A DNA stretch of 22,891 nucleotides from a virus (taxonomy: Duplodnaviria > Heunggongvirae > Uroviricota > Caudoviricetes): positions 1-22,891 of IMG/VR virus record IMGVR_UViG_2713896907_000001, one strand, 5' to 3'. The notes beneath the pieces were generated by a model. That model saw only the letters and a list, made by a program, of their open reading frames with translations. It was not told the DNA's origin and ran no database searches. A program made the position numbers and the translations under genes. Shown here in pieces: positions 635 to 21,002 of this stretch. The stretch's first letter is position 1, and every line of letters begins with the position of its first letter.

Positions 635-892
635 ATGATGTACAGCAAATACGATGAGGCGCAGTTCCACTTGAGGCTTACGCACGAGTTGCACGCTAAG
701 ATTAAGCAGCGTGCAAAAATGAATAACAGGTCTATCAATTCCGAAATTGTGGCTACGATGGAAGAATCACTCTCCAAACCATCACCTGTAAGCGGGTATC
801 GTGATGAAGAAGAGAGGTTGGCCTCATTAATCTCGGAGCGAGTAAAAGAAGTTGCGGCTGATATCCTTAGAAAAGAAAAAACCCGCGATTAA
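635..892 (+). CDS. Mnt-like ribbon-helix-helix repressor (paralog A)
   Basis: From ATGATG at 635 (GGTGAGG Shine-Dalgarno upstream): MMYSKYDEAQFHLRLTHELHAKIKQRAKMNNRSINSEIVATMEESLSKPSPVSGYRDEEERLASL.... The NGRS-type RHH core and the C-terminal SKPSPV(S/T)GYR..ERLA segment match remembered P22 Mnt; the N-terminal beta-strand residues differ. Upstream part of the track ORF 554..892 is probably not translated. Confidence 0.7.
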   Translation: MMYSKYDEAQFHLRLTHELHAKIKQRAKMNNRSINSEIVATMEESLSKPSPVSGYRDEEERLASLISERVKEVAADILRKEKTRD

Positions 893-906: not shown

Positions 907-1128
907 TTAGTTATCAAAAAGTCCGTACGTTTCTTCTTCTTCAGGTGTAAGGGGAAGAATCTCTACTCTATCTATAGATACCTTTTCAATGTACCCATGA
1001 GGTCTACTTAAAATTAAAGCTCTCTCATGCCACAGAACTCCAAGAATGTGATACCTTCCAGCATCGCCTTTTACCCTGGCTCTTCCTTTGATTCTTGGCG
1101 GCATAATGCCATATTTTTTCTTTGCCAT
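907..1128 (-). CDS. Hypothetical 73-aa protein, translationally coupled to the upstream antirepressor-like gene
   Basis: ORF MAKKKYGIMPPRIKGRARVKGDAGRYHILGVLWHERALILSRPHGYIEKVSIDRVEILPLTPEEEETYGLFDN; its ATG overlaps the stop of the preceding gene (TAATG at 1126-1130). No family recognised. Confidence 0.45.
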   Translation of the reverse strand: MAKKKYGIMPPRIKGRARVKGDAGRYHILGVLWHERALILSRPHGYIEKVSIDRVEILPLTPEEEETYGLFDN

Positions 1129-1853
1129 TATGCAACATTACTCCCATGAATCAGGTGTTGTAGTGCTTTAACACCTTCCTCATTGTAGCGGAACGCTTCC
1201 ACCTGTTTGCTGGAATGCGCAGATTTATCCAGGAAGAACTTCCCGTACTGCTCAGTTTTGAGGTTGTTTGCGTTAGCAATGCGACCAATCTTGTTGGCCG
1301 TTACTCCAAGCTGCTCTGCAACCTCCCCTGCTGAGTAGTAATGCTCTTCTATTGCCGGAAGAGGTATTGCATTAAAACCAACGAGCGGGTTGATTATACT
1401 TGCTGCCGCTGTCTGCTTTGCCTCCGGCGCAAGATTTGGCATCAGATCGAACAGATTGGTAACAGCTTCAACCGTCATTTTCAATGTTCGCGCTTGACGA
1501 TACTCAACAAGTCCACTCGCTGATTTACCGCTTTTAATGTGCGCTTCCTGCATACTTTCAAGTTTGTCTACAAGTGTTCGGCGAACTGCTTTAGATTCGC
1601 GAGCAGCAACACGAAGCGCCTGCTTGATAGTCATGGAGATAACATCAATGTCAGCCCCGTTTTTCCGACCTACACTTTTTGTGTAGGTCTCGCCTTCCAA
1701 TTCATCCTCAATTTTCTCGATGAATTTGTTGTTACGTACTGATGGCTCTCCACATAACTTGCGAGCTTCATTAACCATCATCAGAAGACTTTGGCTGTCA
1801 ATGGTTTTATCCGTGACAACGGATCCGATGTTTGCTACATTCTTAAAAGTCAT
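1128..1853 (-). CDS. Antirepressor-like protein with C-terminal ANT/KilAC-type DNA-binding region (ant2)
   Basis: Track ORF 1128..1940 begins at a non-ATG codon; the likely start is ATG at 1853 (MTFKNVANIGSV...) preceded by an AAGGAA Shine-Dalgarno. C-terminal segment YYSAGEVAEQLGVTANKIGRIANANNLKTEQYGKFFLDKSAHSSKQVEAFRYNEEGVKAL looks like the helix-turn-helix part of phage antirepressor C-terminal domains. Confidence 0.55.
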   Translation of the reverse strand: MTFKNVANIGSVVTDKTIDSQSLLMMVNEARKLCGEPSVRNNKFIEKIEDELEGETYTKSVGRKNGADIDVISMTIKQALRVAARESKAVRRTLVDKLESMQEAHIKSGKSASGLVEYRQARTLKMTVEAVTNLFDLMPNLAPEAKQTAAASIINPLVGFNAIPLPAIEEHYYSAGEVAEQLGVTANKIGRIANANNLKTEQYGKFFLDKSAHSSKQVEAFRYNEEGVKALQHLIHGSNVA

Positions 1854-1891
1854 TAGGCATTCCTTATGTGGTAGTAAGTGTGTGACATAGG

Positions 1892-1940: not shown

Positions 1941-2567
1941 TCAATGAATCCATTCCTCGCCGCGAAGTTTTGCCAGCATTGGCTGAGCGTTCTTTACGAC
2001 AAAATTGTTGGTATCAAGATTCTTCATTTCACGAAGAAGTGATTTCTTGGTTTCTTCTGACATGTAGCGAGTCTCATATGCAATATCGTAAATCCTTCCT
2101 GAAAGCTCAGAACCAATTTGCTTCATTCCTGGGTAGATGTGTTTGCACATTTGTTGACTCTTCTCCATCCACAATTGTAAGTAGCAGAGATTAACCAGCT
2201 CTTCGTCAGTGAACTGTTTTGCAATCGGTGAGCATTCTGTCTGCCGATCCAAAATATCCAGCACCCAGCGGCGGAACTCTTTGGCTACCGGAGTGCGAGC
2301 AAACATCGCGATTAGGTGGGCACCGCGTAGTGAGAAAACTCGCACTTTTTTGCGATAATTTCCTGAGGTACTCACTTCGAGTACCTGAGTCATTCCGGCG
2401 CTAAACTCATCGCTATACTTGTTATAAATCATTGTTACTGCACGACTATTTGCGTATTTAAGTGCAGATGCAATATTAGATGATGTAAACCAAACACCAT
2501 GCATATCACGGGTGGGCACCAACTCAACTCCGTGGAAGTTGTAATCTGATTTTGCTACAATATTCAT
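1941..2567 (-). CDS. Antirepressor-like protein, N-terminal (BRO-N/Ant-N type) domain (ant1)
   Basis: Track ORF 1941..2651 would overlap arc; the likely start is ATG at 2567 (MNIVAKSDYNFHGVELVPTRDMHGVWFTSSNIASALKYANSRAVTMIYNKYSDEF...) with an AAGGAAA Shine-Dalgarno. It sits directly downstream of the Arc-like gene, as ant does in the P22 immI region. Confidence 0.55.
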   Translation of the reverse strand: MNIVAKSDYNFHGVELVPTRDMHGVWFTSSNIASALKYANSRAVTMIYNKYSDEFSAGMTQVLEVSTSGNYRKKVRVFSLRGAHLIAMFARTPVAKEFRRWVLDILDRQTECSPIAKQFTDEELVNLCYLQLWMEKSQQMCKHIYPGMKQIGSELSGRIYDIAYETRYMSEETKKSLLREMKNLDTNNFVVKNAQPMLAKLRGEEWIH

Positions 2568-2601
2568 GTTAGTTTCCTTGCATACGGTTACTGACATAGA
2601 G

Positions 2602-2645
2602 GCCCGGTTTGTGTTCGCGCACTGCCGGGCTTCACTATTTTTATT
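2602..2645 (+). terminator. Plus-strand hairpin plus U-rich tract in the arc-ant1 intergenic region (candidate sar-like terminator)
   Basis: GCCCGG (2602-2607) pairs with CCGGGC (2625-2630), with an inner GTG/CAC stem; followed by TTCACTATTTTTATT. Position matches where P22 sar RNA terminates, at the 3' end of arc. Confidence 0.4.
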
Positions 2646-2814
2646 GGGCATTATCTCTTTCCTCTCTCAGGCTTTTAGCCAGTCGCTGCACAATCGCAGA
2701 GTTGATAGAAATTCCATCCATTTCAGCAACACGTCTAATCTCCTCCTTCATTCGCGCTGGCAAACGAAGCTGGAAACTTTGACTTTTACGACCTGTGTAA
2801 AGCACATCTTTCAT
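2641..2814 (-). CDS. arc: Arc-like ribbon-helix-helix repressor
   Basis: From ATG at 2814 (GGGAGG Shine-Dalgarno 7 nt upstream): MKDVLYTGRKSQSFQLRLPARMKEEIRRVAEMDGISINSAIVQRLAKSLREERDNAQ. RHH pattern resembles remembered P22 Arc (PQFNLRWPREVLDLVRKVAEENGRSVNSEIYQRV); divergent from an Mnt-like gene and upstream of ant-like genes. Confidence 0.7.
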   Translation of the reverse strand: MKDVLYTGRKSQSFQLRLPARMKEEIRRVAEMDGISINSAIVQRLAKSLREERDNAQ

Positions 2815-2841
2815 AAGTAATCCTCCCACAATGATACCAAC

Positions 2842-2857
2842 TTGGTTCTAGAACCAA
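2842..2857. promoter_or_regulatory. Perfect 16-bp palindrome TTGGTTCTAGAACCAA in the divergent arc/mnt control region (candidate operator)
   Basis: The sequence at 2842-2857 equals its own reverse complement. It lies in the 96-bp intergenic region between the divergently transcribed Arc-like and Mnt-like genes. A related half-site AAGTTGGT occurs at 2883-2890. Confidence 0.6.
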
Positions 2858-2925
2858 TTTAACACCATTTATTTTGATGTCAAGTTGGTGCTATTGTTTA
2901 GCGAACATCTTTACGTTGAGGTCAT

Positions 2926-3246
2926 ATGAGCAAGTTCCCTAGTCATGAAATGGATAGGTTCAATATCAGGCTTCCTGCAGGAATGCGGGATGCTATAGCT
3001 GAACGAGCAAAACGTAACGGCAGATCAATGAACTCAGAGATTGTTCAGATACTGGAAGATGCCTTGAATGCAGAAAATACACTCGGGGAAATAGCAGATA
3101 AAATCAACAGCGTCTCGGTTCCGCTAAATGTTGATGCGCTAGTTCAACTTCAAGCCCAGGTTATCGCCATGCAAAAAGAAATACAGGAAAAGTTCAGAGA
3201 GCAGAACGAAAAGTTGAGAGAACTGCTAAACAAAAAACCCACCTGA
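2926..3246 (+). CDS. Mnt/Arc-family ribbon-helix-helix repressor (paralog B, in the canonical mnt position)
   Basis: MSKFPSHEMDRFNIRLPAGMRDAIAERAKRNGRSMNSEIVQILEDALNAENTLGEIADKINSV... has the RHH core (FNIRLP ... NGRSMNSEIVQ) followed by a coiled-coil-like C-terminus. Divergent from arc, as mnt is in P22 immI. Confidence 0.7.
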   Translation: MSKFPSHEMDRFNIRLPAGMRDAIAERAKRNGRSMNSEIVQILEDALNAENTLGEIADKINSVSVPLNVDALVQLQAQVIAMQKEIQEKFREQNEKLRELLNKKPT

Positions 3247-3271
3247 AGGTGGGTTAATTTTTGCCTTTTTT
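3231..3271. terminator. Bidirectional intrinsic terminator
   Basis: Stem AACCCACC (3236-3243), loop TGAA, GGTGGGTT (3248-3255). Flanked by an A-run upstream and TTTTTGCCTTTTTT downstream, so a U-tract follows the hairpin on either strand. Separates the immI genes from the upstream moron cluster and late operon. Confidence 0.65.
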
Positions 3272-13788: not shown

Positions 13789-15987
13789 TTACTGCTGTGG
13801 TTGTTGCTGGGTTGATTTTTGCAGGATGCTGCTGATGTCCATTCGTTGTGCATGGCCCTGTGCCTGACTTTTCAGGACAAGCTCTGCATCAGCACGGGCA
13901 TTGTCTCCTTGCTGTTGCTGGAACTGTCCGAGCAGTTTCAGCGCCTCACGGATATCAGATTTTTGCTGGCTATCGGCAGATGCGAGGATTTTCACAACAT
14001 TTGCCGCAGCAACCTGAGCATCCGTCTGTGCCTGGAATGCTTTAACCTGAATGGCTGCCTGTTCGTTCTGCGCTTTCTGCAATTCAGCCTGACCAGCAAG
14101 AAGCTGACCTTGCGCTGCAACCATAGCCGGATCTGGCTGACTGGCCTGTTGTTGTTTCGCCTGTTCAACCATCTGCTGTTCTTCAGGCGTTCTCGGCTTG
14201 ATAACGCCAGACAGAAGCAACTGATTGCGGTTGTATTCTTTAAGGTCGTCCATCCCTTCGCCGTCCATATTGTCGAGAATCATCGACGATACAAGGTCGT
14301 GCTTCGGCGTTCCTGGTGGGATAAGTGCCAGCATGGAAAGTAACGACTTAACCGTTGCATCACGGCGAGTAGCGAACGACTGACCGACATCGACAGTCAC
14401 TTCATAGTTACCCTGCGAAAGGTCGTTAAGCGCGATAACCTGCCCTGTCTGACGGTCAACCACTTCACCAGTCATCAGCGCCACGTCATCGCTGCCATCC
14501 TCATTAACGATGCGCATTGGCGTATCGCTGCCATAGACTTCACGAGCCATAGAAAGCCACACGACGCCAGCACGGCGCATGGATTTAGCCATGTTGTCCA
14601 TGTAGATATAGGACTGCGTGTCCATCCGATTAAAGATGCTATCAACGGTATCGGTAGCGACGTTGCTCGGCATGTTCTCAAGCTGCGACGCACCTGTAAT
14701 TTGCTGAATAGCCGTTCCGGTGTACTGCAATAGCCCGGCAAGAGCAGGAGGCATTTGTGTCGGAGGTGTCCAGCCAGCAACCTGAGCCTCTGAAATGACC
14801 GTTCCGTTTTTGTCCTTCTTGCTGGTCATGGGAAGAACTGCAGGTCTTTTCTTATTCCTCTCTGCCCAGTGATTCATTAATGGACCGGGAATGAAATCAA
14901 CATCCACGATAGGAATGCCATCACCGCCAGCCTGAGTAGCGTTATCTGCAATCATGGAAACCATCAGGTTCTCAAGACGCTGTGCATCCATCGCTTTTGC
15001 TGCGTGGCCTTCGATTCGCTCCTGATTATCAACAAATGAGCGACGCCCATATACCGGGATGAGAGGAATATGTTCGCCAGGAATACGCTTCGGTTCTTCC
15101 AGCCATTCAGCGCCAGAAAGAAGACCGCAATAAACTCGGCGTTTCTTCACCGTTCTCTCGCCAATCAGTTCGAATGCACCATCGGTCAGCTCGTCGACAA
15201 TATCTTTGATTTGCTCTTCATCATAGATTGCCGTTTCTCCGCTAACAGGGTTGCGCCACGCCGTGAGCTTCACCTTCTCTATGCGAACTTCGTAGTAACG
15301 TCCAACATAGATGGCGTCAGGCGTTGACCAGTCATACTGAGTACCAGTGTCATCCCGAGAAAGGCTTGCCGCAATGGAATCAGGGTATTCAGCCTCGAAC
15401 GCTTTAGGCGTCATGGAGAACATTTCCATAGCCCACATAGCATCAGAGCGGTCATATTGTTTGCTGTCCTGATCGAAGAAGACGCATGTCGCCGGGTCGT
15501 AAACAGGAAGAATGCTGATGCGTCGCTGCTCGTTACTTGGGTCCATTTCATCTTCGTAATCGGCACACATGCGGAAACAACCGAATCCGCCCGTTACAGC
15601 ATCATCAAATGCGTTATCACACGCTTCGCCACCTGATGTTTCCTGATAGTCAGCGCGGAATTTGCCGTTCATCTTTTCGGCTAACGCTTCCGATGCCTTG
15701 TCATCCTTCGGCCTGAATTTAACGCTGATGCGATTCTGTCGATACTCGCCAATGATGCGATCACATTCACGGGCAATCTTATTCAGTTCAAAGCGCGGGT
15801 AATGCTCAAACCTGCCTTCATCAAATGAGTAACCAGCGTTTGTGCTGCCTTCCCACTGTGCGCCGGATACCCGGACGAAACGTTGAGCCTCAATAATCTG
15901 CTCACGCATATCCTGCGTTGCTGACCAGGCATTATCAAAGTTGCACAGCACCTTGCGATGCCAGTCAGTCATCTTTTTTTCTGCCAT
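13789..15987 (-). CDS. Portal protein, P22 gp1-like
   Basis: 732-aa ORF. Segments such as KRRRVYCGLLSGAEWLEEPKRIPGEHIPLIPVYG and the C-terminal Gln-rich helical region ending DISSILQKSTQQQPQQ align with remembered P22 portal (KRRRVYKSIITCT...AGEHIPIVPVFG; long C-terminal barrel). Confidence 0.9.
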   Translation of the reverse strand: MAEKKMTDWHRKVLCNFDNAWSATQDMREQIIEAQRFVRVSGAQWEGSTNAGYSFDEGRFEHYPRFELNKIARECDRIIGEYRQNRISVKFRPKDDKASEALAEKMNGKFRADYQETSGGEACDNAFDDAVTGGFGCFRMCADYEDEMDPSNEQRRISILPVYDPATCVFFDQDSKQYDRSDAMWAMEMFSMTPKAFEAEYPDSIAASLSRDDTGTQYDWSTPDAIYVGRYYEVRIEKVKLTAWRNPVSGETAIYDEEQIKDIVDELTDGAFELIGERTVKKRRVYCGLLSGAEWLEEPKRIPGEHIPLIPVYGRRSFVDNQERIEGHAAKAMDAQRLENLMVSMIADNATQAGGDGIPIVDVDFIPGPLMNHWAERNKKRPAVLPMTSKKDKNGTVISEAQVAGWTPPTQMPPALAGLLQYTGTAIQQITGASQLENMPSNVATDTVDSIFNRMDTQSYIYMDNMAKSMRRAGVVWLSMAREVYGSDTPMRIVNEDGSDDVALMTGEVVDRQTGQVIALNDLSQGNYEVTVDVGQSFATRRDATVKSLLSMLALIPPGTPKHDLVSSMILDNMDGEGMDDLKEYNRNQLLLSGVIKPRTPEEQQMVEQAKQQQASQPDPAMVAAQGQLLAGQAELQKAQNEQAAIQVKAFQAQTDAQVAAANVVKILASADSQQKSDIREALKLLGQFQQQQGDNARADAELVLKSQAQGHAQRMDISSILQKSTQQQPQQ

Positions 15988-20846: not shown

Positions 20847-20922
20847 TGGTGCTGGTTAACGGACTTGAACCGCTACCCATTCGCTTACAAGGCGACTGCT
20901 CTACCATTGGAGCTAAACCAGC
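20847..20922 (-). tRNA. tRNA-Thr (anticodon UGU)
   Basis: Minus strand GCTGGTTTAGCTCCAATGGTAGAGCAGTCGCCTTGTAAGCGAATGGGTAGCGGTTCAAGTCCGTTAACCAGCACCA folds as a 76-nt cloverleaf: perfect 7-bp acceptor and 4-bp D stem, anticodon loop CTTGTAA, T-loop TTCAAGT, encoded CCA. One G-A at the base of the anticodon stem. Confidence 0.75.
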
Positions 20923-20927
20923 ATATT

Positions 20928-21002
20928 TGGCGGGACAGCGTGGACTCGAACCACGATAAGAAGGTTAACAGCCTTCCGTAATGACCTTTATACGACTGAC
21001 CC
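20928..21002 (-). tRNA. tRNA-Asn-like (anticodon GUU), possibly slightly degenerate
   Basis: Minus strand GGGTCAGTCGTATAAAGGTCATTACGGAAGGCTGTTAACCTTCTTATCGTGGTTCGAGTCCACGCTGTCCCGCCA: perfect anticodon stem GAAGG/CCTTC, loop CTGTTAA, T-arm CGTGG-TTCGAGT-CCACG, encoded CCA. One U-U mismatch in the acceptor stem and a 3-bp D stem. Only 5 nt from tRNA-Thr. Confidence 0.55.

Follow-up and report, generated by a model that had tools for sequence, protein, structure and literature searches.

The window analyzed here, the whole stretch of 22,891 nucleotides, contains two divergently orientated genes encoding ribbon–helix–helix (RHH) proteins, and a 16-bp palindrome is located in the 111-bp intergenic space that separates them. 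Which of the two proteins, if either, uses this palindrome as an operator is the question raised by the locus. An operator of the Arc/Mnt family of RHH proteins consists of a pair of inverted boxes separated by about one helical turn, and the specificity of the repressors resides in the N-terminal arm and the β-strand. The answer was sought in the genes surrounding the palindrome, in its position relative to the predicted promoters, and in its occurrence among related loci.

The RHH genes and their immI setting

The first gene of the arc-ant operon (2641–2814, minus strand) encodes an Arc-like RHH protein of 57 amino acids with the β-strand SFQLRL. It matches the Pfam Arc family with 9e-12 and the Arc entry of the PDB with 2e-5 and is 42% identical to P22 Arc. 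The divergent gene (2926–3246, plus strand) encodes an RHH repressor of 106 amino acids (Pfam Arc, 1.6e-20) with the β-strand RFNIRL and the triad R-N-R, whose matches in the PDB are AmrZ (1e-8), Mnt (7e-8), and Arc (4e-5). With 45.1 and 73.1 bits, respectively, at a cut-off of 20.4, the Arc-like and the Mnt-like protein both belong to the Pfam family PF03869. In a BLASTP comparison, the 106-amino-acid protein was 54% identical to P22 Mnt over 37 amino acids (residues 12–48), which comprise the RHH domain only; its C-terminal half is unrelated to the tetramerization domain of P22 Mnt. The divergent repressor is, hence, not a full-length Mnt homologue, and the label "Mnt-like", under which it had been introduced in the original prediction, is justified by the common RHH domain but not by the C-terminal half. 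For the same reason, a tetramer of this protein has the status of an assumption. The stop codon of the gene falls within a bidirectional terminator-like hairpin, AACCCACCTGAAGGTGGGTT (3236–3255), which has a T-run on either strand.

A third RHH gene (638–892, plus strand) is orientated divergently to the tailspike gene and convergently to the arc-ant operon; it encodes a protein of 84 amino acids with the β-strand QFHLRL. This protein is a full-length homologue of P22 Mnt, with 47% identity over 73 amino acids including the C-terminal domain. Neither a palindrome nor an operator-like repeat nor a promoter was found upstream of the gene. Irrespective of the type of immI control, it accompanies the tailspike-proximal genes.

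A prophage of E. coli 55989 is 99% identical to the window. Its annotated gene order comprises the P22 capsid, gp4, gp10, the needle, the DNA transfer protein, the locus described here, the tailspike, the integrase, and tRNA-Arg, and this P22-type arrangement around the locus identifies the window as a P22-like prophage. The locus is situated between the gene-16-like (DNA transfer) and tailspike genes of a P22-like genome, and according to the open reading frames and the Pfam matches, an RHH repressor gene is divergent from the arc-ant operon. On the basis of these sequence features, the locus is the immI region ("ant moron"), and the P22-like prophage context together with the ant moron slot bears out the immI-type control region that had been proposed. 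Two adjoining tRNA genes are located within the prophage at 20850–21002 on the minus strand (Rfam tRNA, 61.5 and 55.3 bits). A region of 701 bp around the palindrome is 98% to 100% identical in 13 complete E. coli genomes, 55989 included; of the 5,426 complete E. coli genomes, these 13 carry the immI variant as a whole, and 348 carry it partially. Related loci were also found in phages and prophages of Klebsiella, Salmonella, Erwinia, Yersinia, and other genera.

A mosaic ant moron slot with variable mnt, arc, and ant content has been described for P22-like phages of Salmonella and E. coli (Villafane et al., 2008; PMC2629481), and the mosaicism of the present relatives agrees with what the text of that paper states on ant moron diversity. 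A term search of the same text yielded no discussion of the operators of non-P22 ant moron versions. In some relatives, the Mnt-like/Arc-like pair is replaced at the control position. An example is the IMG/VR contig 3300045988_145383 (L185:6005-6919), in which a 213-amino-acid repressor of the LexA/CI type (HTH and S24 peptidase) is divergent from a different RHH protein of 57 amino acids, upstream of the same antirepressor.

The antirepressor gene (1941–2567, minus strand) encodes 208 amino acids from the ATG at 2567 with the Pfam domains Bro-N and P22_AR_C. The same 627-nt coding sequence is annotated by RefSeq in E. coli 55989, and its start aligns with the start of P22 ant. The conserved internal methionine at 2567 has the ribosome-binding site AAGGAAAC. 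A longer open reading frame from the ATG at 2651, which overlaps arc, was rejected in favor of the ATG at 2567, because the additional part coincides with sar, as it does in P22, and the RefSeq annotation has the short version. The long frame (1941–2651, minus strand) probably mis-extends ant through the sar region; it is labeled Ant by GenBank in SPN3UB, Oslo, KP12, and WGPS8.

The arc–ant junction is homologous to the annotated sar region of P22. From this homology, the fold, and compensatory changes in the stem, a putative sar-like antisense RNA (2568–2643, plus strand) was predicted. The feature as a whole spans approximately 2553–2645 (plus strand) and includes a putative Psar extended −10 element, TGCTACAAT, at 2553–2561. 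The predicted RNA comprises two hairpins, with a terminator at 2599–2633 plus a T-run, and is complementary to the ribosome-binding site and the start codon of ant. The plus strand from 2566 to 2646 folds with −35 kcal/mol (z = −5.85), and five of the nine pairs of the terminator stem display compensatory changes among 34 sequences, P22 included. Sequence and fold, hence, point to a sar antisense RNA at the arc–ant junction, as in immI. A sar family match in Rfam was obtained neither for the whole window at the gathering threshold nor for 2450–2950 with E up to 10, where only a weak match to SymR (E 0.09) and spurious miRNA matches on the palindrome appeared; the homology to sar was therefore established through the alignment with P22. 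Two more genes follow ant in the same orientation (907–1856, minus strand; approximately 242–270 and 73 amino acids, the terminator being located at 900–879 on the minus strand). In a Pfam scan of the larger one, its 270-amino-acid reading had no match, and it may represent a second antirepressor-like cargo of the operon.

The palindrome and the promoter layout of the intergenic region

The sequence TTGGTTCTAGAACCAA (P1, 2842–2857, no strand) was confirmed as a perfect 16-bp palindrome between the Arc-like and the Mnt-like gene. It is not placed exactly between them, as had been stated, but off-centre, with 27 bp to the ATG of arc and 68 bp to the ATG of mnt. P1 is the sole perfect 16-bp palindrome of the 22.9-kb window. 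According to a first-order Markov model, 0.44 such palindromes are expected per window (at least one in 36% of the simulations), so that a perfect palindrome alone is not rare; the expectation for the 111-bp intergenic space is 0.0018. The outer boxes of P1, TTGG (2842–2845) and CCAA (2854–2857), have centers 12 bp apart, a spacing that would be close to the one-turn geometry of the Arc and Mnt operators. Among relatives of the R-N-R class, the two outer boxes show no variation and the inner positions drift, for example, to TTGGTTGTAGCACCAA and TTGGCACTAGAACCAA. The central T-A/G-G of P1 is also kept in the relatives and coincides with the predicted +1; the conservation of this central TAG may stem from the transcription start and not from repressor contacts. 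Perfect symmetry over 16 bp was observed in 11 of 45 non-redundant relatives bearing the motif. A full-text literature search for the exact palindrome string retrieved no paper.

The consensus scan gave one strong sigma-70 match in the region, which is located on the arc strand and represents the predicted Pant-like arc-ant promoter (2856–2883, minus strand; 10 of 12 matches plus TG). It consists of the −35 box TTGACA (2883–2878), a 16-nt spacer, and the extended −10 box TG-n-TAAATT, whose hexamer covers 2861–2856. Both TTGACA and TAAATTGG are kept without change in 46 non-redundant relatives. Transcription of arc-ant is predicted to start at approximately 2849, which is the A in the conserved TAG at the center of P1. 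P1 includes the final 2 bp of the −10 hexamer of Pant as well as the predicted start point. Its position, together with the covariation described below, suggests a symmetric Mnt operator at the start of Pant, as expected for an immI region.

The related half-site that had been noticed about 40 bp away from P1, AAGTTGGT (2882–2889), is real and conserved. Its TTGGT lies 43 bp from the left TTGGT of P1, and it is part of one arm of a 17-nt inverted repeat (I2, 2828–2844/2881–2897) with 82% complementarity. The odd palindrome ACCAA-c-TTGGT (P2, 2836–2846, no strand), which has the TTGGT in common with P1, is placed at about +4 to +14 of the predicted arc-ant transcript. This third box is moderately conserved in the relatives and reads TTGGT, TTGAC, or TAGGT. 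The sequence GTCAA-g-TTGGTGC (O2, 2879–2891, no strand) contains AAGTTGGT and is an imperfect copy of P2. O2 overlaps the −35 box of Pant and the spacer of the putative mnt promoter; within the R-N-R class, its sequence GCACC.ACTTGACA is invariant, and in other Mnt classes, the box beside the −35 of Pant is CATCATA, TATCACA, or GGCCAAC. Because these boxes change with the Mnt class, P2 and O2 look like auxiliary sites of the same Mnt-like repressor. Since P1 and P2 are overlapping dyads made up of three alternating boxes, either of them could be the functional unit.

A putative mnt promoter (Pmnt) with the extended −10 box TG-c-TATTGT (2889–2897, plus strand) was assigned from its conservation in relatives alone, since it was not called by the consensus promoter scan. 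At this place, TG-n-TA-n-n-n-T is kept in variable surroundings, with the hexamers TATTGT, TACTAT, TACCAT, TATCAT, TATTAT, and CATAAT. The start of transcription is predicted near 2904, and a ribosome-binding site, GAGG, is located at 2918–2921.

Covariation of P1 with the Mnt-like but not the Arc-like protein

With the Arc-like and the Mnt-like protein as queries, approximately 250 related loci were collected from IMG/VR, GTDB genomes, and GenBank phages, and 80 non-redundant control regions were compared. The repressor class was defined by the three DNA-facing positions of the β-strand (triad). TTGG-N8-CCAA was found in 45 of the 46 regions with an R-N-R Mnt-like protein (RFN[IVL]R) and in none of the 34 regions with other triads (Fisher 8e-22, calculated from counts that are not phylogenetically independent). 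Sorted by the Arc class, the same motif occurred in 33 of 53 regions with the triad S-Q-R and in 12 of 27 with other triads (p = 0.16). Just after the −10 box of Pant, the other Mnt classes have palindromes of their own: ATGGTGTCAnGACATCAT in the R-T-R class, GTCACnGTGAC in two copies in the K-M-R class, TCACCGTGA in the P-G-R class, ACCCCACCGTGGGGT, also given as CCCCACCGTGGGG, in the V-N-R class, and GGTCCACGGTGGACC in the H-N-R class of P22. Judged from these sequences, the recombinants may serve as a natural lookup table, in which R-N-R corresponds to TTGG, R-T-R to TGATGTC, and both K-M-R and P-G-R to CACnGTG types.

The mosaic structure of the relatives separates the two proteins. R-N-R Mnt-like proteins together with P1 were found beside seven Arc triads, and the S-Q-R Arc (arc approximately 97% identical) occurs with three unrelated operator sets. 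In L026, the Arc of the window (arc approximately 97% identical from codon 5 on) faces an R-T-R Mnt across an intergenic region that has been replaced entirely. Conversely, L096 and L070 have the Arc triads K-M-R and S-Q-R, respectively, on practically identical intergenic DNA. A natural chimera is present in the Stx-phage WGPS8, in which the DNA from codon 12 to the stop codon is approximately 94% identical to the Mnt-like gene of the window. The WGPS8 protein differs in residues 1–18, and the operators differ, too. This chimera agrees with the observation, reportedly made by Knight and Sauer in 1989, that N-terminal residues set the specificity of Arc and Mnt. SPN3UB (L003) and the Stx2a phage WGPS8 (L004) have a near-identical Arc-like protein and the same Mnt-like β-strand, KFNLRF, and differ in the N-terminal arm of Mnt (residues 1–10) and in the operator boxes, which suggests that the arm also contributes to specificity.

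A reverse search of IMG/VR for TAAATTGGNNNTAGNNCCAA gave 119 matches, 49 of which are located beside an RFNxRx Mnt-like gene. Three further matches have the promoter context, but their Mnt gene was not picked up by the motif scan; two of them are on contigs for which an RFNVRL gene had been found earlier, and the third is L268. Every match with promoter context other than L268, hence, adjoins an RFNxRx gene, 49 of them directly. The other 67 matches have neither a recognizable Mnt-like neighbor nor the conserved TTGAC promoter context and were therefore regarded as chance matches.

The covariation, the independence of Arc, the chimera, and the reverse search taken together indicate that P1 is best read as the operator of the Mnt-like protein. 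It is probably the main operator of the 106-amino-acid repressor, that is, an analogue of Omnt with a new specificity. This assignment draws directly on the sequence of P1, its position relative to the conserved promoter hexamers, its conservation, and its covariation with the N-terminus of the Mnt-like protein. Against it stands that promoters and starts were predicted from consensus sequences and that the operator physically adjoins the 5′ end of mnt, so that some co-inheritance is to be expected in counts that are not phylogenetically independent. However, the 5′ end of arc is equally adjacent to the operator, and yet arc does not covary with it. The different immI specificity suggested in the original prediction is in line with P1 acting as the specificity-bearing operator that tracks the β-strand of the Mnt-like protein. 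Overlapping operators for both RHH proteins had also been proposed; here, the comparisons assign P1 to the Mnt-like protein only, as it varies independently of the Arc-like one.

An alternative role of P1, as operator for the Arc-like protein or as a site shared by overlapping operators of both proteins, would fit with the location of arc directly downstream and with P22, in which, according to the annotation, Arc autoregulates Pant; moreover, no other Arc operator was found in the region. We consider this unlikely, because a single S-Q-R Arc is combined with three operator sets, seven Arc triads occur with P1, the pair L096/L070 differs in the Arc triad but hardly in the intergenic DNA, and the Arc class is not associated with the palindrome at the p-value given above. 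An operator of the Arc-like protein was sought by comparing regions with the same Mnt and different Arc classes and vice versa, and by inspecting the 5′ UTR and the arc–ant junction. In the intergenic region, the 5′ UTR, and the arc–ant junction, no element tracks the Arc class except for the single base that follows the −35 hexamer. With an S-Q-R Arc, this position is T in 51 of 53 regions; with a V-N-R Arc, it is C in 7 of 8. In several V-N-R Arc regions, a perfect CACCAT-N5-ATGGTG is present within the spacer of Pant, where Oarc is located in P22, which is a lead and no more. Because at least seven triads are found beside one operator set and one Arc beside three sets, it is conceivable, if rather doubtful, that the Arc-like proteins have no class-specific operator and act via a conserved core-promoter element or via the Mnt-like protein.

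The palindrome might also be devoid of any repressor function and owe its symmetry to chance or to a feature of the promoter, the start, or the 5′ leader. The number of palindromes expected per window, the coincidence of the central TAG with the predicted +1, and the perfect symmetry in a minority of the motif-bearing relatives (11 of 45) would be compatible with this. The low expectation for the intergenic space, in contrast, and the invariance of the outer boxes across hosts and recombinant backgrounds make it very improbable, all the more since the boxes are replaced wholesale with a change of the Mnt N-terminus, whereas TTGACA and the −10 box stay. Binding of P1 by the RHH protein encoded at 638–892 has the lowest probability and was rejected by co-occurrence: although this protein is the closer relative of Mnt and includes its C-terminal domain, it is 98% to 100% identical on contigs with R-N-R, R-T-R, other RHH, or even LexA/CI-type immI repressors without P1 and, being unchanged across control types, does not track P1, and its β-strand is unlike the class that does.

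Proposed regulation and comparison with known systems

Binding, stoichiometry, transcription starts, and regulatory outcome are given in the following as they would be expected from the sequence if P1 is the operator of the Mnt-like protein. In the lysogenic state, the extended −10 promoter of mnt, TGcTATTGT (2889–2897), would drive expression of the Mnt-like protein. Two dimers, one on each outer box (TTGG and CCAA) and about one helical turn apart, would occupy P1 by analogy with Arc and Mnt. As P1 overlaps the −10 box and the start of Pant, binding would exclude the RNA polymerase and keep the antirepressor silent, so that the main repressor of the prophage would stay active. The boxes at 2836–2846 and 2879–2891 would probably bind further repressor, and O2, which covers the −35 box of Pant and the spacer of Pmnt, could mediate autoregulation of mnt. 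In an infected cell without this repressor, Pant would fire and lead to the production of Arc and Ant, and Ant would then be limited by Arc together with the sar-like antisense RNA (2568–2643, plus strand).

With these results, a concrete predicted operator and promoter layout is assigned to an unstudied immI variant. Antirepressor switches decide on prophage induction and on the cross-talk of co-resident prophages, and the pairing of repressor and promoter is therefore predictive of immunity groups. The mosaic relatives pair repressor β-strands with DNA boxes, which is useful for deriving recognition rules of RHH proteins and for the design of orthogonal repressors; the compilation of β-strands and operator boxes is the most useful by-product of the analysis.

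The similarity to P22 immI extends to the slot, the RHH repressor gene divergent from arc-ant, the P22_AR_C antirepressor, and the homologous hairpin of the sar terminator. A symmetric operator is located just downstream of the −10 box of Pant in both cases; in P22, it lies between the −10 box and arc. The operators of P22, assumed to overlap in the original prediction, are adjacent in the P22 record and do not overlap (Oarc, ATGATAGAAGCACTCTACTAT, 14798–14818; Omnt, AGGTCCACGGTGGACCT, 14822–14844). P1 differs from both, in agreement with the original prediction. In place of the Omnt sequence, TTGG-N8-CCAA is found here, and it is centered at about +1 of the predicted start, whereas Omnt is centered at about +8. 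The β-strand is RFNIRL instead of HFNFRM in P22 Mnt, and the C-terminal domains are unrelated. Pmnt and Pant of P22 overlap fully; here, the putative Pmnt appears to be arranged back-to-back with Pant, with O2 over the −35 box of Pant. The related boxes P2 and O2 are additional to the P22 arrangement, and a site resembling Oarc was not identified in the region. Inverted boxes are likewise present in the Arc–operator complex (1PAR) and in AmrZ (3QOQ), from which P1 differs in its box sequences, the spacing here being 12 bp. The known picture of how immI works is unchanged by these findings: the locus is a copy of the well-known P22 immI switch with a new specificity and not a new kind of system.
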